Source: a virus
Virus record (IMG/VR): IMGVR_UViG_3300010885_026047
Location: 49,640 to 113,639 of that record
Reading direction: 5' to 3' (one strand)
DNA: 64,000 bases
Numbering within the stretch: position 1 is the first letter of the stretch; each line of letters opens with the position of its first letter. The notes beneath the pieces are model-generated. The model was not told the DNA's origin, ran no database searches, and saw only the letters and a list, made by a program, of their open reading frames with translations. The translations under genes and the position numbers were made by a program. This document shows, piece by piece, positions 5,788 to 64,000 of this stretch.

Positions 5788-5910
5788 ACTATCTACAGCC
5801 AGTTAACCCACCAGATATAACTACTACCTGCAGAGAGTTGTTTCTAGCAGGGTTTCGTGTTTCTTCTACAGGTTGTTGTGTTCTGGGTATAGCTATACTT
5901 CTTCAGGTAG

Positions 5911-6237
5911 TTACTTGCTAGTATAAACCCTCTGCTGATACCAGTTGTGGAACTCTACAGGGTCTTTCATCATGTCTGACAGTGTCTGTGCTTTTGGCTC
6001 AACTCTGTCATAGGCAGGTCTTGTCTTCGGAAACTCTACATATCGACCACTTTCTTTGCCTATAGTCAGTTCCTGTAGACCTAACAGAGTACCTACTTCT
6101 ACACAAACCAGAACGTTATCTGTATCGCTGATAACTGGTATATACTGATCTGCAGGGTAAAACCTGGGCCGGAACAAACCTATGACCCTGTCTTGCATTT
6201 GTCTGAGAGCTTCACTCAGTTGCTTTGTGTCTTGCAT
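5911..6237 (-). CDS. Hypothetical protein
   Basis: 108 aa ORF with A-rich leader. Confidence 0.65.
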   Translation of the reverse strand: MQDTKQLSEALRQMQDRVIGLFRPRFYPADQYIPVISDTDNVLVCVEVGTLLGLQELTIGKESGRYVEFPKTRPAYDRVEPKAQTLSDMMKDPVEFHNWYQQRVYTSK

Positions 6238-6318
6238 GTTTTTGTGTTTTAACTGGTTAACTTATCTTGGATAACGCTTCACTTCTGTAGAAAGGGTGTA
6301 TAGAGCAGAACATCGAAC

Positions 6319-11274: not shown

Positions 11275-14200
11275 ATGTCTTTTCAACTGCTTGGTGTCTG
11301 GAACGCACAAACCAACTTGACCTCTACCGGTATACACCTTGCTGACGGTACTGGTACTACTGGAGACTGCTATACCTGCTGGACAAGTGGTACACAGAAC
11401 CTTGGACATGGGTTCTTTAACTATCAGCAAGGGCAAGTTATCTTATATACAAACGGTCAGTGGGTATGGCCTGGTTCTAACGGAGAGATAGACTTCTCTC
11501 TTATCTTTCCAACCTTTACTTTAGCCGGAACCTGGAACCCGAACACAAACACAACATCTCTTGGAACACATCTTACTGCAGGAGTTGGTACTGCTGGTAC
11601 TGTCTACACAGTTTCTACACCTGGTATCTGTGATCTTGGTTGGGGGCCTTTTAACTGGGCTACCGGGTTTAACGTTGTGTACAGTAACGGTAAGTGGTTG
11701 TGGATAGGTAAAGATCTTGTTTGTAACTATGGTAACACATCCGGTGGAACTGGTGGTGGGACCGGAACAGTTACTTACGTGAACATCCAAACATCTGGTT
11801 CTGGCCTATCTGTATCTGGTGGACCTGTAACATCTTCTGGAACTTTCCTACTGCAGAACACATTACCTGATCGTACTGTAGTACTCAACCAAGGTCCTGG
11901 TATATCTGTTACTGGTACTTACCCAAACTTTACAGTTTCTACTTCTGGTAGTACAAGCCAGACATCTGGTACTGTAACCTCTTTCAACACATCTGGTCTA
12001 TCCACACTCTTCACCACAAGTGTCAGTAACCCAACTACAACTCCATACCTTACCTTCTCACCTATAGCTGAGAACCAGAACTTGTTCTTTGCCAGTCCTA
12101 ATGGTTCTTCTGGCATACCCTTGTGGAGAGCTTTAACAGTCAACGACTTTAACAGTGGTACAAGTGCAAACGCTACAACTTTCTGGCGTGGGGACGGAAC
12201 CTGGGCAACTCCTTCCAGTACTACTTATACTGGTACATCAGGTGTAACTGTATCTGGTACATCCATCTACCTGGCACCTATAGCAGCTAACTCTGTACTA
12301 GCTAATGTTGGTTCCGGTTCAGGTTCGCCATTTAGTGCCCTGTCTTACTCTGCTGTAAGTGCTGTAAACAGTCTTGTATATAGAGACGCTAACCAAAATG
12401 CCTTTGCCAATAACTTTACATCTAAGGGAACTAATGTTGTATCTGCAGGAAGTACTACTATACTTACAGCAGCATCTACCCGGTTACAAAATCTCACAGG
12501 TTCAGCTAACCAGACATTTCAACTACCAGATGCAACAACACTGTCCATAGGGGCAAGGTTCACTTTCAACAATAACAGTACAGGTGTTCTAACAGTAACT
12601 AATAATGGAGGTATTACCATAGCGACTTGTCCTGCAGGAGGTGCTATAGAAGTTTTTGAGATAGCAGCATCTACACCAAATGGAGCATGGGACTATCACT
12701 TCTATATACCTGCCAATGTACAATGGGGTACAACTGCTCTTATCTATTCTGGTCCTATAACAGCTACAAAGTTTGTTACATCTGGAGGTACTTCCTCTCA
12801 GTTTGTAAAAGGGGATGGTACTCTTGACAGTACTATATATAGTACTACATCAGGTACAGTTACTTCTGTAAGTTTACTCTTACCAAGTTCTGTGTTCTCT
12901 ATATCCGGATCACCTGTTACTTCTTCAGGTACACTTACTGGAACACTTCAGACACAAACAGCAAACACTTTTTTTGCAGGACCTGTCAGTGGTTCTACAG
13001 CACAACCTACCTTTAGAGCTATAGTTGCTGGAGATCTTCCTTCCAGTACTGGAACAGTTGCCAGTTTCTCATCTGGTAATCTTGTACCTTTATTTACTAC
13101 AACTATAGCAAATCCTACTACAAACCCTGCACTTACTTTCAATCTTTCTTCTGCAGGAGCTAAGACTATCTTTGGTAACCAAACATCTGCCAGTACAACA
13201 CCTTCTTTCTTTATACCTATCTTAGCTGTGGGTCCTTTTGGTTCTGAAGGAGCAACAACGCAGGTACTACACGGTAATCCAAGTGGTAACCTATCTTGGT
13301 CCCAGGTCAACCTTGCTGCAGATGTTACTGGAAACTTACCTGTTACAAACCTTAACTCTGGCAGTAGTGCGGGAGCTACAACGTTCTGGAGAGGTGATGG
13401 TATATGGGCACAAACATCAGGTTCATCTATAACTCCTGGAGGATCATCTACACAGGTTCAGTATAACAATGCGGGTACTTTTGGAGGAGCTGCTCTAACT
13501 AACATTGCTACGGACGGCAATCTGTCCTTAGTTAGTACTTCCGGAGCTACAAATGCTATATCAGGATCACTAAAAGTATATAGTAATAACCAAACAGGAA
13601 TAGATGAGCTGCATGTAGTACCGTCTATAGGAATAGAAAGTATACTGCAAAACTCTTTAGGGCAAAATCAATGGGGTAGTTGGGATCTTAGTGGAGTAGT
13701 TACCACTGCTACACAAGGAGGTATATACAATCAGGCATTAGGATTTTCAGGAACACCAGTAGCTTCTACGAGAACTTATGATTCTACTAATCTTGTTCCT
13801 AATCATATGTACTTGAAATATCCTACGGGTTCAGGAAATAATTCTCAAGCAGAGTTATATTTTAGTTCTACTGCCAGGGCATCAATGATTGGTAATAATA
13901 CATATGGAGGTGGTTCAAAATGGGTTGGTAAATTTAACCTTCCACAATATACTTCTGCTAATAGAGTGTTTGTAGGATACGCATCTTCTGCTAGTGCATT
14001 AGGAACAACAGTTGACCCTTCCACATATACCAACATAATTGGTGTTGGTAAGGATGTTGCAGATACTACTTTACAGATAATGTTTAACGGTAGTGCAGGT
14101 ACAGCTACAAAAGTAAATACGGGAATAACACCAACTGCTAATGATGAATATAGAGTTACAATAATAATTTTACCTTCTGGTACAACATCCTATGTAACAC

Positions 14201-32059: not shown

Positions 32060-34304
32060 CTATAAGATACCCACTTGGAGTCCGGAGAAAAACTGGCACT
32101 ACACAAAGTTTCCTAACAAGGAAGCTTTTCGTGTTTATGTCAAGTCCTTGTTTAAAGAACCGGGTAAGTACAAGTTTGACGAGACCAGTTTCAAGTTTAA
32201 CGAACATAGTAGGTTTTTCACCAAGAACAAAGTATATACTATAGCACCTGAAGACTCACAAGACTTTTACGAGTACTGGGACACAGAAAAAGAGAAGTGT
32301 AAGAAGGGAGTTATTTTTCATAACGACAAAGGAGACAGTTGGTATCTGACTCGATGGTACTACCACTGGATAAACTTCCTGCAGATATACGACAAGAGAC
32401 CAAGTGTAAAGAGTTTCAACTTCCCGGATGTCATGGATCATCAGTATCATGTCTGTCTATACGAGATGTGTGCTATACTCCATGGCAAAGACGAAGCTGC
32501 GTTAAAGAAACGGCAAATGGCTTGGTCATATATGCATGAGGCTCGTATGTATAACTGTTACTTGTTTGATAGTGGTTTTGTTGGTAAGATGGTTGCTTCT
32601 GATAAGAAGTATATCAACGCTACTGGCGGTGAGTGGAAGTTCTTAGATGAGTATCATAACTTCAACAACACGCATACTGCATGGGCCTGTTCTAACAACC
32701 CTCACAAGGAGTTCTCCTGGAAGCAACAAGTAGAACAGAAAACAGTTGATGGTAGAAAGGTGTTTATAGGTTCAAAAGCAACTATCTCCGGGATAACTCT
32801 TGATAAAGACCCGATCAGTGGAGTAGGAGGTGCCTGTGACTTATGTATATATGTAGAAGGAGGTATAGCTCCAAGTGCAAACATCACACATGGGTTTATG
32901 AAACCAGCTATGAACTTTGGTGGGATAAAGACAGGTACGTTTAACATAGGAGGGTCTGTGGGTGATCTGGATCAGTGTGAACCACTAAAAGACATGATCG
33001 AAAACCCAGAAGGTCATGATATCTATGCTATAGAGTCTAACTTACTAGATGAGAACGGAACTATAGGTATGACTGGTTTGTTTATACCGGAACAGTGGGG
33101 ATATAGTGGAGAAACGGAAGAAACAAACTGTATAGACCAGTACGGTAACTCTCTGGTAGAAAAAGCACTGGAAGTACTTAACAAAAAGTATACTCAGGCA
33201 AAACTTACCAAAAAACACGAAGACTATCAACTGGCAGTATCACAAGGACCAAGAAACATAGCTGAAGCTTTTGCTATTCGTAAAGTATCTGTGTTCCCGG
33301 TAAGACACACTGCAGCACAAACAAAACGTATAGAAGACGGAGAAGTATATCTACGTTATGTAGAACTTGAAAGAGACGAAGATAACTCTATAAGTTTCAA
33401 GATAACTACAGATAGAAAACCCTGCCCATATCCGATAAAGTTGACTGAAGAAGACAAGAGAGGTGTGGTAGTTGTTCATGAGTTTCCTGGTAAGAGTCCT
33501 GAGTGGGGAGACTTTTACTTCTCTGTAGATCCAGTCGAAGTGGGCAAGTCCGAAACTTCGGACTCCTTAGCAGCTATCTATATCTATAAGAACCCGGTTA
33601 AGGTTACACAGATAGACGAAGAAGGTAACAGTACAACATATATAGAACGTGGTAAGTTGGTATGTGAGTGGGTAGGTAGGTATGATGACCCTAACGAAAC
33701 CAACGAACAGCTATCCAAGGTAGTGGAGTGGTATAACGCATGGGGTATAAGTGAGAACAACAAGACCTCTTTCAACAACTATATGATCCTCAAACGGAGA
33801 GTTAAACACTTAGCTCCTTCTACCGAGATGTTGTATGACAAAGAGATAGGAGTATCTCAGAACGTTTACCAGAAGTTTGGTTGGTCTAAAACAGGCAGTA
33901 ACGAAACAGGTATCTGGAAGAAGATGTTAACAGACGGTATCAACTATCTCTCTGAAGAGTTAAAAGAAGACAGAGATGAGGAAGATAAAGTTGTCAAGGT
34001 TCACTATGGAGTAGAACGTATACCGTTTATATGGCTTTTGAAAGAGATGCAAGAGTATCAGCCAAAGAAAAACTTTGACCGGGTTATAGCTTACTGTGCT
34101 CTTATATCTTTTGCTAAGATACAAGAAGCTGCCAGGGAGATCAAAGAGAAGACAGAGCGAGTATCGGATACGAACAAAAAGCATACCTTTACTAGGTCAA
34201 ACTTTTTAAAGTCAGTAGGTAGACAGCAACAAGCAACTCAACAAAGACCTATGCAGATGTACAGAAGTGTTGGCAAACAACAACTCACAGTTAAAAAGAA
34301 GTAG
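32049..34304 (+). CDS. terL: Terminase large subunit (crAss-like)
   Basis: KKRQMAWSY Walker A variant, IYVEGG Walker B, LFIPEQW, P....EAF, RNase H-like SVDPV, ENN, NFDR. Confidence 0.9.
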   Translation: MKSSYKIPTWSPEKNWHYTKFPNKEAFRVYVKSLFKEPGKYKFDETSFKFNEHSRFFTKNKVYTIAPEDSQDFYEYWDTEKEKCKKGVIFHNDKGDSWYLTRWYYHWINFLQIYDKRPSVKSFNFPDVMDHQYHVCLYEMCAILHGKDEAALKKRQMAWSYMHEARMYNCYLFDSGFVGKMVASDKKYINATGGEWKFLDEYHNFNNTHTAWACSNNPHKEFSWKQQVEQKTVDGRKVFIGSKATISGITLDKDPISGVGGACDLCIYVEGGIAPSANITHGFMKPAMNFGGIKTGTFNIGGSVGDLDQCEPLKDMIENPEGHDIYAIESNLLDENGTIGMTGLFIPEQWGYSGETEETNCIDQYGNSLVEKALEVLNKKYTQAKLTKKHEDYQLAVSQGPRNIAEAFAIRKVSVFPVRHTAAQTKRIEDGEVYLRYVELERDEDNSISFKITTDRKPCPYPIKLTEEDKRGVVVVHEFPGKSPEWGDFYFSVDPVEVGKSETSDSLAAIYIYKNPVKVTQIDEEGNSTTYIERGKLVCEWVGRYDDPNETNEQLSKVVEWYNAWGISENNKTSFNNYMILKRRVKHLAPSTEMLYDKEIGVSQNVYQKFGWSKTGSNETGIWKKMLTDGINYLSEELKEDRDEEDKVVKVHYGVERIPFIWLLKEMQEYQPKKNFDRVIAYCALISFAKIQEAAREIKEKTERVSDTNKKHTFTRSNFLKSVGRQQQATQQRPMQMYRSVGKQQLTVKKK

Positions 34305-34305
34305 T

Positions 34306-34977
34306 ATGGATAACATAGTTGTATACAGATATCTGAGAAACGATACAGGTTATCCTGTTTATATAGGTATAGGTACTTTAAAACGTGCCAGAGATACAAA
34401 GAATGGACGGAGTGAGTTCTTTAAACGTATCAGAGATAAACATGGTATAGAGTTAGAGATAGTTGAAGAAAGGTTAGACTGGAACACTGCTGCTGAAAAA
34501 GAGAAGTGGTGGATAGCTTTATATGGTCGTATAGATAACGGTACAGGGATACTTTGTAACCTAACAGATGGTGGAGAAGGAAGGTTTGGTTGTAAATTAT
34601 CACCTGAGAGTATCCAGAAGGGAAAAGATACAAAAGCAAGAAATGGGTTTAAAGGGATGCTAGGAAGAACTCATACTGAAGAAGTAAGACAAAGAATGTC
34701 TAAAAGTAGGCAGGGTAGAGAAGTCACAAAAGAGACAAGAAGAAAGATAAGTGAGAGTGAGAAAGAAAAGCCAAAACGTAGGACTGAGAAGTTTATACAA
34801 GCTATAGCTAACAGGATAGGTAAGACACACAATGTCAGAGCAGTTATAAACACCACTACAGGACAAGTATTTCCATCAGTTCGTCAAGCTGCAGAAAGTG
34901 CAGGTATCAGGGATGCCACATTGGGCAGGAAACTAAGAGGGGATAGGACAAACAACACAAGTTTTAAGTTTATATAA
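34306..34977 (+). mobile_element. Free-standing GIY-YIG-like homing endonuclease with NUMOD3/NUMOD1 repeats
   Basis: VYRY...PVYIGIG...RA, E...I..YGR, NLTDGGEG, HTEEVRQRMS, TGQVFPSVRQAAE; lies between terL and portal. Confidence 0.8.
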
Positions 34978-41126: not shown

Positions 41127-41157
41127 TTGGAAAGATAACAGAAAGATGCTAACTTTG
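41127..41157 (+). promoter_or_regulatory. Bacteroidota-type promoter of the LAGLIDADG gene
   Basis: TTG-N20-TAACTTTG. Confidence 0.7.
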
Positions 41158-41178
41158 TTCAAACTAAAAACATTGAAC

Positions 41179-42096
41179 ATGGAAGAAGAAATAGTAAAGA
41201 AGCCAGTAAGTTCTCTAAAGAAGGTAAGCCAGGAAAGACGAGATAAAGTGATCGAACTACATGATGCCGGACACTCTCAAAACTATATCTCAACCGTACT
41301 ATCTATGACCTGCAGAACTGCTCAGGCTATCTTAGAAGCTAGTGGGAGAAAAAGAACGAGAAGTGAACAGAGTTACTTTCATCATAAAACATCTACACTA
41401 AAAGAAGATGCTTTTGATGTTATAGATACTGAAGAAAAAGCCTACTGGTTAGGTTTTATTTATGCTGATGGGTTTATAACTAACCCTAATGCCAAAAGTA
41501 GTAAAAAATATAATGTGGGCATACTTCTTAAAAAAGATGATATAGGACATTTGGAAAAGTTCAAACAGTTTTTAGATGCTCCTCAGAAGATAACACTTGG
41601 TACATCTACAATCAAGGGTATAGATAAGACTTACTATAACGCAAGGATAAACATAGGTTCTCAAAAGCTGCATAAAAAGTTGCAAAACTGGGGTATAACA
41701 TGGAACAAGAGTTATGATGCAAAACCTCCAGAGGAGATGAAGACTAACAGAGACTTCTGGAGAGGTGTAGTCGATGGCGATGGATACTTAGGTATAGTAA
41801 ACGATAAGAGTAGAGCGAAAGGGAGGAAGAGATTGCACTTATGTGGAACTATAGATATGGTACAAGGGTTTAAAGACTTTCTTGTAAGTAATGGTATAGG
41901 TACTACGTATGAAGTAGTTAGTGTAAGGGAGAGTATGCAGTATAAGATGGAAGTCAGTAGTACAATGGCTGAAAAGGCTGTAAAACTTCTTTATGAAGGG
42001 TCTACAGTTTACCTAGAGAGAAAATACCAACGCTATTTGGAGATCATAAAAGAAAACTCTAACTTTGAAACTCAAAAGGAACCATATGCCAGTTAA
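41179..42096 (+). mobile_element. Free-standing double-motif LAGLIDADG homing endonuclease with N-terminal HTH
   Basis: KAYWLGFIYADG and DFWRGVVDGDG, ending LY......LERKY. Confidence 0.85.
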
Positions 42097-49076: not shown

Positions 49077-49589
49077 ATGGAAAGGTTTTGGAAGAAAGTT
49101 GATATAAGAACAGAAGAAGAGTGCTGGAACTGGACAGCTTATAAGGACAAAGGAGGGTATGGGATATTTAAAGTAAAGAGTGGTATAAATGAAACTGCTC
49201 ATAGGTTCTCATATAACTGGTGTAAGGGAGATATAACAAACGGGTTACATGTATGCCATAAGTGTGATAACCCTTCCTGTGTAAACCCAAACCATCTATT
49301 TCTAGGTACTCCTGCTGAGAACCATGAAGATGCTACTCGAAAAGGGAGAAAGGATATGAAAGTTATAGCTGGTATAGGGAGAACTTTTACTAAGTTATTT
49401 GAACGAGGACATATACCTCATAACAGAACAGTATCTGATGAAACAGTACTATATGTTAAAAGGTTGTTGAGGGATTATCCAGATAAAACAGTAAAGAGTA
49501 TAGCTGAAGATACTAACGTATCTGTAGATATAGTAAACAAGATAAAGTCAGGAGTATCATATAGTTATTTACGACTAGAAGAAATATGA
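49077..49589 (+). mobile_element. Free-standing HNH homing endonuclease
   Basis: RFW.KV....[37 protein letters not shown]. Confidence 0.9.
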
Positions 49590-50140
49590 GTCAGCATATC
49601 TTATCAGTACAGGTGGACGATACTTATAACCCAGGAGTTTTCTTGGTTCGAGATACGTCTATCTATACCTCATCACTTCCTGTTAGTTGTCAGAGTTTGC
49701 AGATAACACCTCCGGGTTTTACTACACCTACAGTTATAGTACCTACTACCCAGAACTTTCAGTATGTGTTAAATGCTTGTACACTTGGTATAGTTAACCC
49801 TACAGGTTGTTCTGATATGTGCCCAAACATACCTGATGGTATATATGGGATATGGTATAGTGTTTCTCCTAACGATAAAGTGTTTGTTGGATACCAGTAT
49901 CTACGGATAGTGCAAGCTATAAACAGGTTAAACAAGTATCTCTGTGCTTTACAACTTCCTAACTGTTTACCAGGCCAGGAGCTGACTTACGAGTTACAAA
50001 ACATAGACATCATCCGTAACTATCTGAGAAGTGCTCAGACTAACATAAACGAGTTACATGAGTTAACTGACGGTATCAACCAATATAGGTTTGCTATAGA
50101 CTTGATGAACAAAATGAGTAGAAAAAAACCATACTGTTAA
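49586..50140 (+). CDS. Conserved crAss-like structural protein
   Basis: [32 protein letters not shown]. Confidence 0.7.
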
Positions 50141-57182: not shown

Positions 57183-60100
57183 GTGGCAGATAACCAAGAA
57201 CAACAAGGTAGACCAGAAACTAACAACGAGTTTGGTAAGGGACTTAACAAAGACCTTATAGATACCTTCATGCCACCAGGGTCCTACTTCCACAGTCGGA
57301 ATGCTACTATATCTCTTCCTGATGGTAACACTGGTCCAGTTCTCCACACAGAACCAGCAAACATACTTGAGGTTGTTCTTCCTTATACTCTTATAGGTTC
57401 TATACAACTAGAAGGAGACCGGTGGATACTTTTTACTACTAACAACACTTATAGTGAGATAGGTCTGTATATAGAGACAACTGGTACTTACACAACTTTG
57501 TTAAACGATGTAGCTACTATAACTGCTACTACTGTTCCTCCTACATACGTACTACCTGCACCTTTGCCTTTACCTGGTCTGAACTTTAACACAGCTAACC
57601 TTATAACTGGTCAGGCACGTAGAAACTTTGACTGTGGTTTTGATGTTTACTGGTCTGATGGTGGGAGAAATCCTGATAGGATGATAGATACAGCTTATCT
57701 CTATCCTAACCCTTGGGTACAAGACTGTTCTACAGTAGCTGCTTGTACTACTTGTACAAACACAAACCTTATAGATACAAACGCTATAAGGATGTCTCCC
57801 CAGTTTACCATACCTTGTCTGAACTTGTCCAAGTCTACCAACTCCGGTTTACTTTTAAACGGTTCTTATCAGGTTTGTCTAAGGTTTGCTATAAACGGTA
57901 TAGCTTGTACAGACTTTGTAGCACAGTCTAACGTGATGAGTGTGTTCTCACATAACAACCAGGCAGGAGCACTAACTTTGAAACTATCCGGTATATCTGC
58001 AGAGACTACAGTTATCTTCCCTGAAGTGGAGATAGTTGTTGTATCTATGGTAAACTTTCAAGTACAGGCTAAAAGACTTGGTATCTACAACAGTGATCTG
58101 AGTACTATCCACATAGATAACTTAGCACAGGAACTTGTAAACATAGACCTGAAGTTACTACCTCTTTCTACTCCTATCATAGATAGTTGTGATGCTATGT
58201 ACGGAGTTTCAGACTATCTGGTAAAAGTTGGTGTGAGAGAGAAACCAGACTTTAACTATCAGTTACTTGCTAACCAGATACAAGTGTGGTGGGTATGCAT
58301 AGAGTATCCGGATATCTACTATCACAACGGTGGAAACAACGGATATCCCATGAACGTTGGCTATATGCGTGGAGAGGTCTATAGCTTGTATAACCGTTGG
58401 GACTACACTACTGGAGACAAAACTGCTTCTTATCATATACCTGGTCTACCTGGTGGAACTCCTGCTACAGTGTTTTTAGGAGCACCTCCCGGAGTAACTA
58501 TAAACGATGGTGGTACTATAGTAGCTTATGGACGTATGGCTGGATATAGTTCTGATATAACTTATCCGGATAACGAAGCAGATATCTGGGGACCTTTGTG
58601 TGGGCAACCTATCATGCACCACAAGTTTCCAGACCAGACTGACTCTGCAGTACTTACACACTATACTGCTAACGGCACTATCAGAGTCATGGGTTTGTTC
58701 CTGACAAACGTTTTAGCACCTACAGATAACACCGGAGCACTTTTACCAAACATACAAGGTTACGAGATACTTAGAGATGTGCGTAATGGTAACGAGTCTG
58801 TACTTGCTAAGGGTATGATCAACAACATGCGTACCTATACTGATAGTAGTGGAGAACAAGGTATCTTCCAGAACTATCCGTATAACGACTTGAGGCCTGA
58901 TCCATATCTTTCTGCAAGTGTTACAACAGTAAACCACGGAGCACCTGGAGAAGGTTTAGATCACTCTAACATGTTAACTGGTTACAGAACAGATATACTT
59001 TCTTTCCACTCTCCAGATACAGTCTTTCAACATCCATATCTCGGTAACGGCTCCCTAAAGATACTTATGGGTATGGCCGGTAGTACACATGGTAGGTTCC
59101 ACGAACCATATAAACATCCCTTGTTTAAAGTACTTACTAACTTTGATAGTTTACTTGCTGACTTTATATCTCTACTTGAAGTAGCTTTAAACGTAGCAAG
59201 TGCTGTTTCAGTTGCAGCTGGAGGAAACCCTCCTGAGTGGCAGTTTGCATCTACAGAAGCTTTACCTCTTACAGTACCTGTGTTTGTACCACCTGCCCCT
59301 TCTTTAGATATAGACGGAACAGATATAAACATAGCACTTAACTACGTTATAGCTGCTCTGAACATAGCCACTTTAGTACTCCTTAGTGCTATAGAGATAG
59401 CAGCTTTAAGAGAGCAGATACTTGTTATCATAAAAGGTCTTGTACCTGGCAGACAGTATGCTGCTCAGTACGATAGTTCAGGTTTCTACAACCTTCCACA
59501 GACAGGAGTTGGGTCATCAGGTGCTTCTTATACGATAAACGACTATAGCTATATCAAGAGTCAGTTACAGACTTTCCAGGACTTAACTGTTAACAACATC
59601 TACAGAAACGACTTTGTAGCACTTAGTCTTAACGGAGGACCTTCTCCTTTGACTGGAGATACTAGTAGGTTCTTGATAAGTGATGTTAGCAATAACCCTA
59701 ACTGGTTGAAGTACAACGGAGCACAGTGGTTAAGTCCTACACAGGGTCTTCCTGCAGGTTTAGGAGATGTAGTCTCTTACTACGCAGCTTATAACATAGA
59801 CCAACCTTCTCAGTATGGAGGTATAGGTACTTGTAAACAGGTTCCGATAGGTTGTATGCAACCGACTGTACCTATATCAGCTCCTGCAAGTTATACATCA
59901 GCTATACAGTTTGGTGGAGATACTTATATCAACAGATATACAGAGAAGAACCCTTTTATGTTCTTTAACGACTGGTTAGTAAATGCACCTGAAGACTTTA
60001 TCTATGACTACCGTAACTATGTGAACGTTCCATATCCGATGTTCTGGATAGACAATGATGTGATAAACTACACTTTGTTAGGACTTGCTTCAGACAACAG

Positions 60101-61868
60101 GCGTTTAGATGGTCCTATAAACTTAGCTATACCGTTCTTTCCTGGTATGAGTGGCAAACTCTTTTACGTAAACACTGGTTACTTCTACCTGTTCTGTAAT
60201 GGTGTAAGAGACTTCTATGTAGAGAGTTCTGTAAACGTTGGTTATCGTGACTGGGGAGAACTTATACAAGAACAGTACTATAACCCATACGGTCTAACAC
60301 AAGATATAGCACAGATCTTCAGGTCAGATATCATTAAAAGTGATCCTGTCTATAAGTATGACTACAGTCTGTCTGCAGATAAGTTCTTTAACCAGTACTT
60401 GTCATGGTCACAGTGTCTTGACAGAGACTATAACCCTGTACTTGCTTATAGTTGTTTTGCTTACTATCCAAGGCGTATAGCTTACTCCTTACCACAGGAA
60501 GAAGAACTACGTAAAGACAACTGGAAAGTGTTCTTACCAAATAACTACAAAGACTTCCCTACTAATGTCATAGCTATAAAAGATATCCATAAAACAGGAG
60601 CACTTATACTACTGGATGACCAGGCCCCTCTTAGTTGGATTGGTGTTGAGAGCATCCCGTCTAAAAGTGGTACAGACTTTACAGTAGGTACAGGTGTTTT
60701 GTTCAAACAACAGTTACAGTCTTTAACTAACGTAGATAACTCTTATCAGTACGGCAGTTGTCAGAACAAGTTATCAGTTATCTCTACACCTCATGGAGTT
60801 TTCTGGTGTTCCCGAAACACAGGTAAGATCTTTCACTACAAATCATCCCAGCTAGACGACATATCCCAGTATGGACTGAAGTATGACCTATCACTCTTCA
60901 TGCCATCACAACTGCTTAAACAGTTCCCACAATATCCGTTAGCAGATAATCCTGTAGCAGGTATAGGTATGCAGATGTTATATGACTCTATAAACGAGAT
61001 AGTATATATCTGTAAGAAAGACTACCAGGTAAAAAGTGAGTATATAAGATCTGTATATCTATCTGGTAATAACTTTTACTATAGCGGAGGACCTTCAAAA
61101 CTTCAGATAACCTTGGGAGATCCTTTGTACTTCACAGACTGTAGCTGGACTTTAAGTTATGACCCAAGAAAGAGACAGTTCATCAGTCATCATGATTGGG
61201 TTCCGGCTTTAAACATACCTGCAAAAACGCACTTCTTAACTACAGATACTGTATACGGACCAGGTAACACACTCTGGAGACATAACCAGGCTACTAACTT
61301 GTTTTGTACCTACTATGACCAGTCCTTTCCTTTTGAAGTCGGCTATCCTGTTATAACTGGAGTTAACGTGACCACCTTAGAGTCGATAGAGGTTTACCTT
61401 GAGAGTTATCTATATAACATAGACCAAGTAGATCGCTTTCAGCAATATGACGGGTTCTTTGACTACTGTGTTCTCTGGAACTCAGAGCAAGGTTCTCTGC
61501 CCATGTTGTTAACCTTAAAACCTCGGGATGACCCATATGCAGAGTTTAACTATCCTATCATAACTGCTGCTGGGGCTGAAGTGCTGTACACCAAACAAGA
61601 GCAGAAGTACAGACTGGGGATGTTACTGAAAGACTTTACAAACGACAGAGGACAGTTTACACTTGATACTGAGCAGTTCATGCAGACAAGTTCTAAGTGG
61701 TACGTTTGGGATATCAACCCGTTATATCTCGACTTTTTTAAAGACGTAACACAACTGAAGAAGATAAGACACTACAAGTCCCGTATCTTCCTGAGAAAGT
61801 TCAACCCAAGTAACATGAGCATGAGTATATACTTCACAAAACAGAAACTTTTAAACAGTCCAAGATAA
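57183..61868 (+). CDS. Tail muzzle/stabilization protein (P22 gp10-like, crAss-like)
   Basis: 1561 aa; F.KGLNKD, GYMR.EVY....RW, GGDTYI.RYTEK, YGS.Q...S...TP.G.F, WTLSYD...F.S.HDW.P. Confidence 0.8.
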   Translation: MADNQEQQGRPETNNEFGKGLNKDLIDTFMPPGSYFHSRNATISLPDGNTGPVLHTEPANILEVVLPYTLIGSIQLEGDRWILFTTNNTYSEIGLYIETTGTYTTLLNDVATITATTVPPTYVLPAPLPLPGLNFNTANLITGQARRNFDCGFDVYWSDGGRNPDRMIDTAYLYPNPWVQDCSTVAACTTCTNTNLIDTNAIRMSPQFTIPCLNLSKSTNSGLLLNGSYQVCLRFAINGIACTDFVAQSNVMSVFSHNNQAGALTLKLSGISAETTVIFPEVEIVVVSMVNFQVQAKRLGIYNSDLSTIHIDNLAQELVNIDLKLLPLSTPIIDSCDAMYGVSDYLVKVGVREKPDFNYQLLANQIQVWWVCIEYPDIYYHNGGNNGYPMNVGYMRGEVYSLYNRWDYTTGDKTASYHIPGLPGGTPATVFLGAPPGVTINDGGTIVAYGRMAGYSSDITYPDNEADIWGPLCGQPIMHHKFPDQTDSAVLTHYTANGTIRVMGLFLTNVLAPTDNTGALLPNIQGYEILRDVRNGNESVLAKGMINNMRTYTDSSGEQGIFQNYPYNDLRPDPYLSASVTTVNHGAPGEGLDHSNMLTGYRTDILSFHSPDTVFQHPYLGNGSLKILMGMAGSTHGRFHEPYKHPLFKVLTNFDSLLADFISLLEVALNVASAVSVAAGGNPPEWQFASTEALPLTVPVFVPPAPSLDIDGTDINIALNYVIAALNIATLVLLSAIEIAALREQILVIIKGLVPGRQYAAQYDSSGFYNLPQTGVGSSGASYTINDYSYIKSQLQTFQDLTVNNIYRNDFVALSLNGGPSPLTGDTSRFLISDVSNNPNWLKYNGAQWLSPTQGLPAGLGDVVSYYAAYNIDQPSQYGGIGTCKQVPIGCMQPTVPISAPASYTSAIQFGGDTYINRYTEKNPFMFFNDWLVNAPEDFIYDYRNYVNVPYPMFWIDNDVINYTLLGLASDNRRLDGPINLAIPFFPGMSGKLFYVNTGYFYLFCNGVRDFYVESSVNVGYRDWGELIQEQYYNPYGLTQDIAQIFRSDIIKSDPVYKYDYSLSADKFFNQYLSWSQCLDRDYNPVLAYSCFAYYPRRIAYSLPQEEELRKDNWKVFLPNNYKDFPTNVIAIKDIHKTGALILLDDQAPLSWIGVESIPSKSGTDFTVGTGVLFKQQLQSLTNVDNSYQYGSCQNKLSVISTPHGVFWCSRNTGKIFHYKSSQLDDISQYGLKYDLSLFMPSQLLKQFPQYPLADNPVAGIGMQMLYDSINEIVYICKKDYQVKSEYIRSVYLSGNNFYYSGGPSKLQITLGDPLYFTDCSWTLSYDPRKRQFISHHDWVPALNIPAKTHFLTTDTVYGPGNTLWRHNQATNLFCTYYDQSFPFEVGYPVITGVNVTTLESIEVYLESYLYNIDQVDRFQQYDGFFDYCVLWNSEQGSLPMLLTLKPRDDPYAEFNYPIITAAGAEVLYTKQEQKYRLGMLLKDFTNDRGQFTLDTEQFMQTSSKWYVWDINPLYLDFFKDVTQLKKIRHYKSRIFLRKFNPSNMSMSIYFTKQKLLNSPR

Positions 61869-62272
61869 TGACAGACATAAGACGTATACCCGGAACCGGA
61901 CTTACACCGGAGAAGATAGTAAGTACTTTGTTTAACTTTCACAACAAAGCGCACTTTTATCACTTACAGACAGATACTATAGGTAAGCACCTACTCTTAG
62001 ACGAGTTGTACAAAGCCCTGGTAGAGTTCAAAGATGAGATAGCAGAGTATCTGTTAGGAGTACAGGTTCCAAAACGTTTTGGACCTCTTACCATGGAACA
62101 GATACAACCTTATACAGATGCTAACATGTTAAGTTTTCTGAACGAAGGTTTTGACTTTTCTGTAGAACTCTGTGCTTATGCAGAGAAAAACAACGAAGAA
62201 GAGCTTTGTAACCTTAGTTCAGACTTACAAAAAGCGTTTAACAAAGCCAGACTTTTCACTACTTACAAGTAA
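61868..62272 (+). CDS. Ferritin/Dps-like protein (DUF5856-like)
   Basis: AHFYHLQT...KH..LDELY.....KDEIAE. Confidence 0.7.
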   Translation: MTDIRRIPGTGLTPEKIVSTLFNFHNKAHFYHLQTDTIGKHLLLDELYKALVEFKDEIAEYLLGVQVPKRFGPLTMEQIQPYTDANMLSFLNEGFDFSVELCAYAEKNNEEELCNLSSDLQKAFNKARLFTTYK

Positions 62273-62397: not shown

Positions 62398-64000
62398 ATG
62401 AAGAAAAAGAACAGATATCAACAGGGTGGTTTATGGAACACTGATAAAAAGGGTTTCGTAGACAGTGTGTTTAACGCAAACAGTTCCAAGAACTTTGTAA
62501 AGCGTTATCAGAACCCTAGTGCTTATCCGGTTATAAACAACCCTGACGGAAGTTACTCTACACATCGGATGGCAAATGATGGAAATCGTGTATATCCTAC
62601 TATAGTACAAGATAAGTCTGGTAAGTTGATAAACTATGGAAACAACGATAATGCTTGGAACTACGCAGATAGCACTGGAGAGTACATAAACTTTGCAACT
62701 CCTGAACAAGCTAACTGGTTTGCTTCTTCTAAAGATAACACAAGTGGTTACAAGATGGGTACACAGAAGAAACAGCAGGGAGGATACGGTCCTCGAAAAG
62801 ATAAACAAAATATAATACCTGGACAACCTCCAGTACCAACTAGAAAAAATGGTGGTTGGTTAGATCAGTATCAAGATGGTGGACCTGTAGAGATGCAGAG
62901 TGGTGGCAGAGCACCTATCTATGTAACTGATCCGCATGATCCTAGGTTACAGGCATATCAGGATAGTCTATCTACTTACAATGCTATACCAGTCTTTAAT
63001 CAAGGGTTAAGAGACATTTTATCAAAGAATCCTTTTCCTGATGTATATAAGATAGAACTTAATGCTTTGATGGATAAAGTTCCGTATAATTCTGATCTTG
63101 TCAGAAGGGGAAATTGGATAGGAAAAACACAACAGGTAAATGGTTATCATCGTGATGTTTTTGAACAAATAGCTACTAATCCTGTACAACCAGTGGTATA
63201 TCAACCACAAAAACTTGTAAACAAACCAAAACCAAGACCAAAAACTCAAATACAATCACTATCTATATCAGACCCAAAACTATTACCTGTAACCAGACGA
63301 GAACCACAACCAGAACAAATCAATATCAATGATCTAAACCCAAATGAGGAACAATGGTTATTTCCACAGACTACTCCTTTCAGACCAGCAGGGTTCTACA
63401 AGAAGAGTATGATACCCGGAGGAGAACCAGTACCAACTAGAAAAAATGGTGGTTGGTTAGATCAATATCAGAAGGGAGGATATATACCAAAGGCTCAGTA
63501 TGGTAGGGCAACAGGAAGTCCTTCAATGGATAGTGTTCAACATCAAGCTGGTAATATGATGGATTTTGAATCCAGAAAAGGTTCTCCTGTAGGTACAGGA
63601 TTAAGTAACTGGGGCTATAATCAATCCCAAATGCCTTATAACCAAGTACCTTCTAATTGGACACAGCCTCAGACAAAAGACCAGGCTGTTGATTTGTACA
63701 TGAAGGAGATAGGCAATAGTGGTAAATTAGACTACTATCCATCAGCTATGGAAAAAGGAGAAGCTGGAGATTTCTTGTATAACACAGGGAGAGATCCAAG
63801 AGTATACATGCTTGATCAGTATCTAAAGTCTAAAGGACAAGCAGGTATTCCTAATAGAGGTTCTTATAATGTAGACACTAAGTCACCACAATGGACTTCT
63901 GATTTGCAAAACTCTTTAGACCAGCAATGGAATCAGCATCAAGGTGATATAATGAATTTGCCTACAAATAATAGAAGAATATTATTAAATAAAGGTAGAG
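62398..64000 (+). CDS. Modular virion cargo polyprotein with QxGG/KNGG linkers; runs off the right edge
   Basis: Not in ORF track. Open frame from ATG 62398: YQQGG, KQQGG, RKNGGWLDQYQDGG, MQSGG, RKNGGWLDQYQKGG, AQYG; last module has a lysozyme-like DFLYNTG. Confidence 0.8.
   Translation, partial: MKKKNRYQQGGLWNTDKKGFVDSVFNANSSKNFVKRYQNPSAYPVINNPDGSYSTHRMANDGNRVYPTIVQDKSGKLINYGNNDNAWNYADSTGEYINFATPEQANWFASSKDNTSGYKMGTQKKQQGGYGPRKDKQNIIPGQPPVPTRKNGGWLDQYQDGGPVEMQSGGRAPIYVTDPHDPRLQAYQDSLSTYNAIPVFNQGLRDILSKNPFPDVYKIELNALMDKVPYNSDLVRRGNWIGKTQQVNGYHRDVFEQIATNPVQPVVYQPQKLVNKPKPRPKTQIQSLSISDPKLLPVTRREPQPEQININDLNPNEEQWLFPQTTPFRPAGFYKKSMIPGGEPVPTRKNGGWLDQYQKGGYIPKAQYGRATGSPSMDSVQHQAGNMMDFESRKGSPVGTGLSNWGYNQSQMPYNQVPSNWTQPQTKDQAVDLYMKEIGNSGKLDYYPSAMEKGEAGDFLYNTGRDPRVYMLDQYLKSKGQAGIPNRGSYNVDTKSPQWTSDLQNSLDQQWNQHQGDIMNLPTNNRRILLNKGR
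62830..63470 (+). repeat. 38-bp perfect direct repeat (44 bp with one mismatch) flanking one polyprotein module
   Basis: CCAGTACCAACTAGAAAAAATGGTGGTTGGTTAGATCA at 62830-62867 and 63427-63464. Confidence 0.9.

Follow-up and report, generated by a model that had tools for sequence, protein, structure and literature searches.

A shared Gly-Gly seam peptide joins apparently exchangeable modules in the cargo gene of a freshwater crAss-like phage

Why should a single phage gene join unrelated domains, one after another, through nearly the same short peptide? The question is raised by the 3' end of a 64,000-nucleotide stretch of viral DNA (positions 49,640 to 113,639 of IMG/VR record IMGVR_UViG_3300010885_026047), which was analysed as a whole and which we refer to as the window. 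Here an open reading frame (ORF) on the + strand, 62398..63999, runs for 534 amino acids with no stop codon before the 3' end of the window. An original prediction, made from the letters alone, had read this ORF as an array of injected effectors that is cut apart by a protease and whose linkers double as recombination handles. Judged by gene order, the ORF represents the 5' portion of the cargo gene that lies behind the muzzle gene (encoding the tail-tip gatekeeper) of a freshwater crAss-like phage from a lake, in the position occupied by C1 (gp45) of phage crAss001. It encodes a polyvalent protein of the beads-on-a-string type, in which flexible Gly-Gly spacers stand between small modules that each fold on their own. 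We hold this anatomy, and the exchange of modules at its seams, with considerable confidence.

Six Gly-Gly seams divide the 534 residues and set off three unrelated modules, and every linker peptide that had been pointed out in advance (YQQGG, KQQGG, two long linkers, MQSGG and AQYG) is present in the protein (Table 1). The seam peptide, or tag, takes a short form, [K/Y/F/M]-Q-x-G-G, and a long form, GG-W-L-x-x-Y-x-x-GG, the latter represented by RKNGGWLDQYQDGG at residues 148-162 and by RKNGGWLDQYQKGG at residues 347-361. The motif QxGG occurs five times, compared with a mean of 0.37 in shuffled versions of the protein, not one of 20,000 of which reached five; Gly-Gly pairs number eight against 3.9 in shuffles (P 0.019). 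In the DNA, the two long linkers form a 73-nucleotide direct repeat that is 84% identical and spaced by 597 nucleotides, and the perfect 38-bp repeat described earlier is its longest exact core. The short seams are likewise found at matching places in other proteins: stand-alone module-1 proteins open in the same manner as the window ORF (MLLYKYQNGG in P0135 and ...RKFQSGG in P0045), and relatives possess PKAQYG, KAQQG or KFQAGG at the same place, just before module 3.

An exhaustive HMMER search with the ORF returned 887 proteins at E<=1e-3; of these, 256 reach E<=1e-10 and 31 reach E<=1e-30. The module counts that follow are based on a local re-mapping of the 150 listed proteins out of these 887 matches. 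Modules 1, 2 and 3 match separately and at any position in proteins that are 116-2394 amino acids long, in keeping with the earlier view that they are unrelated to one another. Module 1 is found in 91 of the 150 listed relatives, module 3 in 54, module 2 in 17 and the long linker in 19. None of these 150 proteins has the order M1-M2-M3 seen in the window, and M1-M3, M3-M1, M1-M2, M2-M1 and M3-M2 all occur. A seam lies 25 residues or less upstream of module 1 in 50 of its 91 occurrences, versus 9% at random positions, and module 2 often has a long seam after it. The comparison of module content across relatives that had been proposed as a check on the original prediction finds both order and content varying even among the closest relatives, as judged by the muzzle protein and by the small DUF5856 protein encoded next to it. 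The cargo protein of the related locus L089 (1151 amino acids, identical to P0001) consists of an N-terminal tag, module 3, a tag, a YkuD part, a further tag, more sequence and a C-terminal WLNKY, and that of locus L090 (at least 1777 amino acids) of an N-terminal tag, a distant module 1, module 3, more sequence, a module-2-like part and tags. The five tag loci closest by muzzle have other module sets, with module 1 in two of them and module 3 in none.

What the modules are can be told for some of these proteins. Among the first 48 of the 150 relatives, Pfam recognizes families in 12 (YkuD, LysM, SLT, Phage_lysozyme2, His_Phos_1, SET, DUF3597, DUF5872 and a weak DUF6782) and none in the other 36; the cargo protein of L090 carries ART-PolyVal (PF18760, E 9.8e-15) and that of L091 carries LysM. 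The modules that can be identified in the window ORF and its relatives are mostly cell-wall enzymes, which does not show them to be anti-host domains, as the original prediction had it, in the sense of defence. Searches of the whole 534-residue ORF and of its parts against Pfam (E<=0.1 for the whole, E<=1 for the three parts) and PHROGs returned nothing. At loci L019-L046, many proteins start, before the first long tag, with one of two mini-modules of about 45 amino acids, LTxxKAxxILHDKxVHGxPLTxKQxxFFGAIAGGA or the zinc-ribbon-like CTCGHSW...CHICGK.

The seam peptide is conserved well beyond the window. Its W[LIM]xx[YF] core occurs 109 times in the 150 relatives, versus 7.0 times in shuffles, and is flanked by Gly in 35 proteins, which contain 53 internal copies; among these 35, M-x-x-WLxKY-xxGG opens 15 and GG-WLxKY closes 28, with both ends tagged in 15. 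For the short form, [YFM]QxGG, the count is 176 versus 6.8, with the logo L-P-K-[YMF]-Q-x-G-G-x-[ILV]. When IMG/VR was scanned with back-translated GGWL[DNEK]KYxxGG, 70 loci were recovered, corresponding to 68 distinct ORFs once two overlapping windows on one contig had been dropped, and each of the 68 has a muzzle homologue upstream of it on its own strand. WLxKY followed by zero to two residues forms the C-terminus of 51 of the 53 long-tag ORFs that have a complete 3' end, compared with only one of 199 neighbouring ORFs of at least 200 amino acids. These C-terminal tags, which were not selected by the DNA pattern, are written in 34 distinct DNA strings that use five Leu codons and both Tyr codons, and the two WLSKY ends of the protein from a further locus, L002, differ in codons. 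As far as sequence comparison reaches, then, the long seam is conserved and selected at the level of the peptide, and it marks both module borders and natural protein ends, with the long form restricted to the gene that follows the muzzle gene. Each tag stands between a leading and a trailing spacer, the outer of which is missing at protein ends, an order that is easier to reconcile with a functional peptide held by flexible arms than with a cut site. Four [YF]QxGG seams are also found in gp041 of Cellulophaga phage phi17:2, an annotated virion structural protein encoded two genes after a muzzle homologue. Our literature searches on crassvirus cargo and polyvalent proteins, which covered newer papers by title and abstract, found no description of the seam peptide.

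If modules are exchanged at seams, a module and its genomic surroundings may have different histories, and two signals suggest that this is so. The first is discordance in identity. Module 3 is 80-81% identical to its counterparts in L089 and L090, compared with 50-52% for their muzzle proteins and 55-57% for their DUF5856 proteins; module 1 is 81% identical to residues 406-529 of the L002 protein, compared with 35% for the C-terminal part of the L002 muzzle and 53% for its DUF5856 protein. DNA identity to L089 follows the same pattern, at 80% for module 3 and 68% for the muzzle gene, and is highest in the linker, the first long copy of which is 89% identical over 56 nucleotides to a linker of L089 and 95% identical over 41 nucleotides to one of L090. 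The blocks of homology run from seam to seam, covering residues 6-129 with L002 and 352-534 with L089: the former stops at seam 2 (residue 129) and the latter begins inside the second long seam (residue 352). From these comparisons we conclude that modules between seams have, by every sign in their sequences, moved between phage lineages.

The second signal is a trinucleotide signature. The genome is purged of AAT/ATT (8.8 per kb versus 53 expected), as are the muzzle gene and the module-1 part of the ORF, and the remainder of the window, from the first long seam onwards, is not (Table 1). The best single change point falls at 62980 (two-log-likelihood-unit interval 62795-62995) and improves the log-likelihood by 37.5, which bears out the AAT contrast that the original prediction had placed near this position. 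The interval opens just 5' of the first long seam and extends into early module 2. Since 62811-64000 is unpurged in a purged genome and the relatives L089, L090 and L002 are themselves unpurged (52-67 per kb), modules 2 and 3, probably together with both long seams, would have entered a resident gene recently. Modules 2 and 3 thus look recently imported, with a junction that coincides with the first long seam or closely follows it, and L089 and L090 are real genes of the lineage that combine such modules. Elsewhere in the record (G000:C1), positions 13001-14000 form another unpurged AAT/ATT island, with 33 per kb versus 0-4 in the adjoining bins, that covers the junction (13978) of two giant ORFs of 4638 and 2145 amino acids. 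In run X1, depth across window positions 62818-62918 is 13.8 at the first long linker versus 4-5 on either side, with loose ends that lead into unlike sequence, and the linker DNA therefore occurs in other contexts in that sample.

Of the three modules, the third offers the clearest functional lead. The window holds roughly the first four fifths of this domain, and its fold was taken from a model of P0030, a complete homologue that stands alone and shares 48% identity with the part in the window (predicted local distance difference test score, pLDDT, 75.5; predicted template modelling score, pTM, 0.73). In a VIA wide exhaustive search with this model, the top 14 rows were all lysozyme-type glycosidases, with Z scores from 8.0 to 4.6. 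They include 2nr7_A (Z 8.0, root-mean-square deviation 3.9 Å, 141 residues aligned), Brucella SagA (7dnp_A, Z 7.4), 2ikb_A (Z 6.7), chitosanases (Z 7.1, 6.4 and 5.7), VgrG3, the SpmX muramidase and phage endolysins. The GH108-type neighbours 2nr7, 7dnp and 2ikb align over 129-141 residues with deviations of 3.8-4.4 Å and sequence identities of 7-15%; 2nr7 (P. gingivalis) and 2ikb (Neisseria NMB1012) are entries that we take to be GH108. Atlas feature leads for module 3 likewise point to GH108 (PF05838), at scores of 0.84-0.85 that fall under that tool's bar of 0.9. Across 53 aligned relatives, E391 and D458 are each conserved in 53 and D466 in 52, and the counterpart of E391 in P0030, E49, sits in the helix formed by residues 34-52 of the predicted model.

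A comparison can be made with SagA, for which the accessible text of its description names Glu17, Asp26 and Thr31 as catalytic residues (PMC8334348). Glu17 lies at the end of the first helix of SagA, as does the candidate Glu391 of module 3. By contrast, the Asp and Thr of the triad that SagA shares with T4 lysozyme have no evident counterpart in module 3, which has no Asp nine residues after Glu391. Conserved instead are E...GS..GTGL and D-F-x-Y-N-x-G-x-D, a pattern that may recall the motifs of lytic transglycosylases. On the strength of the model, we read module 3 as a predicted peptidoglycan glycosidase of the lysozyme superfamily whose nearest family by fold is GH108. The lysozyme-like character that had been proposed from a few residues is thus supported by a predicted fold and an invariant Glu (53 of 53), and this without a Pfam match.

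Modules 1 and 2 offer fewer leads. The model of module 1 is confident (pLDDT 85.7, pTM 0.77), and no solved relative of it was found (best Foldseek E 0.51, best VIA wide Z 2.9). In the BFVD library of viral models it meets only uncharacterized members of its own family, and PDB profile searches with the alignments of modules 1 and 3 gave chance-level rows only (E 0.3-0.5). As a stand-alone gene of 147 amino acids, module 1 is also present in N4-like phages of Pseudomonas and Erwinia, between genes resembling those for N4 gp69 and gp68; the range of module 1 therefore exceeds the crAss-like phages. For module 2, neither Pfam at E<=1 nor Atlas gave a family or feature lead.

The position of the ORF is supported by its surroundings. 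In addition to the muzzle and DUF5856 genes, the window encodes a crass-type major capsid protein, ring protein 2, portal and large terminase (TerL), and the order muzzle-DUF5856-cargo is repeated in L002, L089 and L090. In crAss001, the muzzle gene gp44 is followed by gp45 and gp46 and, from gp47 onwards, by giants associated with RNA polymerase (RNAP). The muzzle gene, the crass structural genes and the crAss001 gene order together place the window ORF in the cargo-gene position. The end of the window is also the end of the 113,639-nucleotide linear virus record, which is rated 88% complete, and the cargo ORF is therefore truncated by the contig end and has no extension in its own record. 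The opposite contig end opens with the complete 4638-residue ORF, followed by that of 2145 residues, both giant and RNAP-like, and the absent DNA falls between the cargo ORF and these two. The C-terminal 940 amino acids of the giant ORF contain no repeated six-residue peptide. The DUF5856 (Dps-like) gene marks only the sub-lineage that includes L002, L089 and L090 and is absent from all 68 long-tag IMG/VR loci. Many homing-endonuclease-type genes (NUMOD3, LAGLIDADG, HNH, GIY-YIG) are scattered through the genome, some between structural genes. At several loci, a second cargo gene 3' of the tagged gene ends in a conserved C-terminal peptide of its own (GYKIKRIK, MGYKFDII, KGYTIQYL or GYQFDIIK), which may be a second end tag that defines a second class of cargo; the second cargo protein of L002 matches Pfam DUF7210 at E 5e-6.

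Table 1. Features of the cargo ORF, its neighbours and related genes (positions are those of the window unless another locus or the record is named)
Feature	Position	Strand	Details
Muzzle (tail-tip gatekeeper) gene	57183..61868	+	1561 amino acids; Pfam PF25731 crAss_MUZ E 2e-14; PHROG virion structural protein E 1e-28; AAT/ATT 17 observed, 245.9 expected
Small DUF5856 / Dps-like gene	61868..62272	+	134 amino acids; PF19174 E 5e-7, under Pfam's cut-off; phrog_858 E 5.8e-9
Cargo / polyvalent protein gene	62398..64000	+	first 534 codons only; 887 proteins match at E<=1e-3, module by module
Module-1 part of ORF	62398-62810		AAT/ATT 3 observed, 22.2 expected
Seam 1, RYQQGG	62413..62430	+	residues 6-11, GG at 10-11; N-terminal short seam
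Module 1	62431..62766	+	residues ~12-123; compact alpha/beta domain; DNA AAT/ATT-purged
Seam 2, KQQGG	62770..62784	+	residues 125-129, GG at 128-129
Part from first long seam to window end	62811-64000		AAT/ATT 56 observed, 69.4 expected
Long seam copy 1, IIPGQPPVPTRKNGGWLDQYQDGG	62811..62883	+	exact 38-nucleotide core 62830-62867
Seam EMQSGG	62890..62907	+	residues 165-170, GG at 169-170
Module 2	62908..63407	+	residues ~171-337; second half proline-rich; DNA not AAT/ATT-purged
Long seam copy 2, MIPGGEPVPTRKNGGWLDQYQKGG	63408..63480	+	exact 38-nucleotide core 63427-63464
Seam variant PKAQYG	63487..63504	+	residues 364-369; AQYG 366-369
Module 3	63505..63999	+	residues 370-534, roughly first four fifths of domain; candidate catalytic Glu391 at 63568-63570
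Homing-endonuclease-type genes	34267-34974, 41146-42093, 49077-49586; record (G000:C1) ~26.7-31.9 kb, 35.7-37.3 kb		
Stand-alone module-1 gene	L003 locus 5872-6315		Pseudomonas phage Littlefix gp26
Second cargo genes with conserved end peptide	L002:5898-7217; L089:6494-8641; L091:4603-6741; L092 13030-15838		

The account that we favour on balance is that of a cargo gene made of tag-jointed, exchangeable modules, into which modules 2 and 3 were recently imported and whose product is packaged in the virion with the tag serving, uncut, for docking. The protein would travel inside the virion and leave it before the DNA does, and module 3, by its predicted activity, would open peptidoglycan. The tag may, without being cut, serve as a handle by which the chain is docked or put in order in the portal and tail channel, or during ejection, a role that we put forward tentatively. 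Because the same peptide, often with similar DNA, flanks every module, in-frame recombination at the shared seams would yield functional new combinations. A more detailed version of this proposal is speculative: GG-WLxKY-xxGG and the short K-[YFM]-Q-x-G-G might form a portable address tag, by which tagged modules dock at sites repeated within the portal, the tail barrel or the lumen of the muzzle and are packaged and injected in a set order, with recombination between tags allowing plug-and-play loading and with module 3 and its neighbour as a recent, still unpurged uptake.

An unlikely alternative is that the Gly-Gly peptides are plain hinges, flexible linkers that help the protein to unfold and thread through the tail, and that their likeness stems from common descent and the copying of linker together with module. 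The seams are disordered in predicted models, as would be expected of hinges, with pLDDT below 50 at seam residues 1-6 and 126-131 of the module-1 model, and the greater likeness of linker DNA between relatives (89-95%) than of the adjoining modules possibly reflects recent copying. For crAss001, the accessible text of the virion structure paper proposes that gp45 crosses the portal partly unfolded (PMC10172136). However, a hinge needs no particular W, L or Y, and these are invariant over 34 DNA versions with synonymous variation in proteins clustered at <50% identity. Nor would hinges be expected to form the extreme C-terminus of 51 of 53 proteins or to be confined to one gene position, with one in 199 neighbouring ORFs ending in the tag.

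We consider it quite unlikely that the seams are cleavage sites at or near whose Gly-Gly a phage or host protease would cut, in head maturation or after injection, to free the effectors, as the original prediction had it. The motif is regular and present at every module border, and natural C-termini lie zero to two residues past WLxKY, as they would after a cut following Tyr. Other viruses cut their polyproteins after Gly-Gly. One relative, P0019, has a weak metallopeptidase-family match below the cut-off (DUF6782, E 7.3e-5), and autoproteolysis by an MPTase domain is proposed for polyvalent proteins in the accessible text of the paper that describes them (PMC5512222). Against this, a scan of 67 of the 111 ORFs of the genome turned up no peptidase family (the other 44 are small ORFs and genes of the sugar cassette; completeness is 88%, with the gap in the cargo region), and the N-terminal tags of the form M-x-x-WLxKY-xxGG in 15 of the 150 proteins would have no purpose as pure cut sites. 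In crAss001, the gp45 seam at residues 425-435 lies within the modelled segment 425-552, and the strings 'cleav', 'proteoly' and 'protease' each occur zero times in the accessible text of that structure paper (PMC10172136). Gels of crAss001 virions (sodium dodecyl sulphate polyacrylamide gel electrophoresis) are described in the accessible text as having bands of 85, 100, 150, 270 and >300 kDa, with 'moderate deviation' from calculated sizes in the authors' words; the large bands of 150, 270 and >300 kDa would argue against cutting (PMC6235969). This evidence may leave room for cutting after injection. The picture of an injected effector array is thus retained in part: a multi-module protein does stand in the cargo-gene position of a crAss-like phage, whereas protease processing at the linkers gains no support from the tags at natural termini, the peptidase scan or the modelled gp45 seam.

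A very unlikely possibility is that the tag works on the host side, as an aromatic, Lys-rich handle that after ejection anchors the modules at the membrane interface or peptidoglycan and so keeps the enzymes at the site of entry. Many of the partner modules do act on the cell wall (YkuD, LysM, SLT, Phage_lysozyme2 and the GH108-like module 3), and a composition of W, Y and K is typical of interfacial anchors. Yet the partners also include the non-wall enzymes SET, His_Phos_1 and ART-PolyVal, and the strict tie of the tag, in 68 of 68 cases, to the gene that follows the muzzle gene points to a partner on the virion side.

Least probable of all is an assembly chimera, in which the AAT-rich 1.2 kb at the 3' end (modules 2 and 3) would come from a co-occurring unpurged relative joined at the shared linker, making the import an artefact and leaving the seams as they are: the AAT/ATT shift does lie 1.2 kb from the contig end, unitigs break in the 38-nucleotide repeat, and the X1 linker has the raised depth (13.8 versus 4-5 beside it) and loose ends described above, but an exact repeat of only 38 nucleotides falls short of the reads or final k-mers that assemblers commonly use, the X1 pieces that flank the linker are 100% identical to the window at similar depths (4.17 and 5.02), AAT/ATT sites at 62809 and 62814 are already present in the piece joined to module 1, 5' of the repeat core, and the L089 and L090 genes show these modules in real combination.

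Several results weigh against our preferred account of a tagged, virion-packaged cargo protein. The best Z score of module 3, 8.0, is middling and in a range that common helical arrangements can reach, and neither Foldseek with the P0030 model (E<=0.001) nor Pfam (E<=1, PF05838 included) gave a match for it; it is the coherence of the lysozyme-type list, rather than any single Z value, that carries the fold assignment. Docking by the tag is something that we infer, as is the presence of the window protein in virions. The portal-binding domain crAss_CARG1 (PF25725) is absent from the 534 residues of the window and from the complete proteins of L089 (1151 amino acids) and L091 (1527 amino acids), and it was not matched in L090 either; in the control search, gp45 matched at E 2.3e-66 (domain at residues 424-555), and the 3' part of the window ORF is missing from the record. 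The purged/unpurged junction lies near the contig end, and Logan unitigs break inside the 38-nucleotide repeat, with none bridging it. In the same vein, three runs of Logan contigs at depth 2-5, their unitigs broken in the repeat, contained no precise 597-nucleotide deletion, a result that is uninformative. Scans of IMG/VR with the exact 26-nucleotide linker DNA and with back-translated PTRKNGGWL gave zero matches each on other contigs (the window's own record was perhaps left out), so that these scans do not establish the DNA repeat as a handle for recombination in general. That the 38-nucleotide repeat is a substrate for recombination is plausible but unproven. The handle proposed by the original prediction accordingly holds for exchange at or near the seams, as indicated by identity discordance, AAT/ATT and block ends, and is no more than plausible for the exact 38-nucleotide repeat as its site.

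These observations bear on how crAss-like phages, which rank with the commonest of known viruses, choose and load the proteins that they inject. A conserved tag at junctions and protein ends would give crassvirus cargo its first candidate for a sorting signal, tag-flanked exchange would explain the fast diversification of crassvirus cargo proteins, and in laboratory phage-host systems the tag would offer a means of bringing foreign proteins into phage particles. The AAT/ATT purge, for its part, acts as an internal clock that separates long-resident from newly imported modules within one gene. Polyvalent proteins as such were known already, going by the accessible text of their description (PMC5512222); added here are the long WLxKY form and the rules on where it stands, together with the discordance in identity and the clock that AAT/ATT provides.

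How does this protein compare with known systems? The nearest by position is gp45 of crAss001, which together with gp46 (C1 and C2, respectively) was identified as a virion cargo protein by mass spectrometry and parts of which were resolved by cryo-electron microscopy, residues 425-552 on the portal and 214-245 in the tail barrel, as reported in the accessible text of the structure paper (Bayfield et al. 2023, PMC10172136). Both proteins are jointed by seams: in gp45, aromatic-GG peptides (A[FY]GG at 209, 263, 332, 427 and 562) punctuate small segments, the GG positions bracket the two resolved parts, and AFGGWLNTQGG (425-435) sits exactly at the start of the portal-bound segment. The two differ in that the gp45 seams are A[FY]GG, without a C-terminal WLxKY, and those of the window [YFM]QxGG, and in that gp45 is encoded directly after the muzzle gp44, whereas in the window lineage the DUF5856 gene stands between muzzle and cargo. 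The gp45 and window sequences do not match directly, and the gp45 mini-modules at residues 262-335 and ~361-461 recur in proteins of the module-1/module-3 pool (P0028 at E 1.6e-29; P0051, P0011, P0023, P0026, P0136 and P0046 at 2.5e-9 to 4.5e-5, in a small local database).

Short terminal peptides that are attached through flexible spacers and direct otherwise unrelated proteins into an HK97-type shell are known from the capsid-targeting sequences of T4 internal proteins and the cargo-loading peptides of encapsulins. The likeness of the tag to these signals is a functional analogy only, and the arrangement differs: the T4 and encapsulin signals are single and terminal, that of T4 being cut off, whereas the tag recurs at every junction between modules and at either end of the protein. 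Polyvalent proteins, as described in the accessible text of the paper on them, join several unrelated domains in one phage polypeptide with variable architectures, include lysozyme and other cell-wall domains and are predicted to be delivered with the invading DNA (Iyer et al. 2017, PMC5512222). The window ORF shares the unrelated domains and an architecture that varies among relatives, and has a lysozyme-like module 3; it has no Pfam-recognized domain itself, whereas its relative L090 carries ART-PolyVal, a domain of the polyvalent-protein repertoire. The main text of the polyvalent-protein paper, in its accessible part, describes no conserved junction peptide and contains the word 'linker' zero times (PMC5512222). 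In the proteins studied here, by contrast, a single conserved tag stands at the junctions and at both protein ends, and its long form is tied to one gene position.

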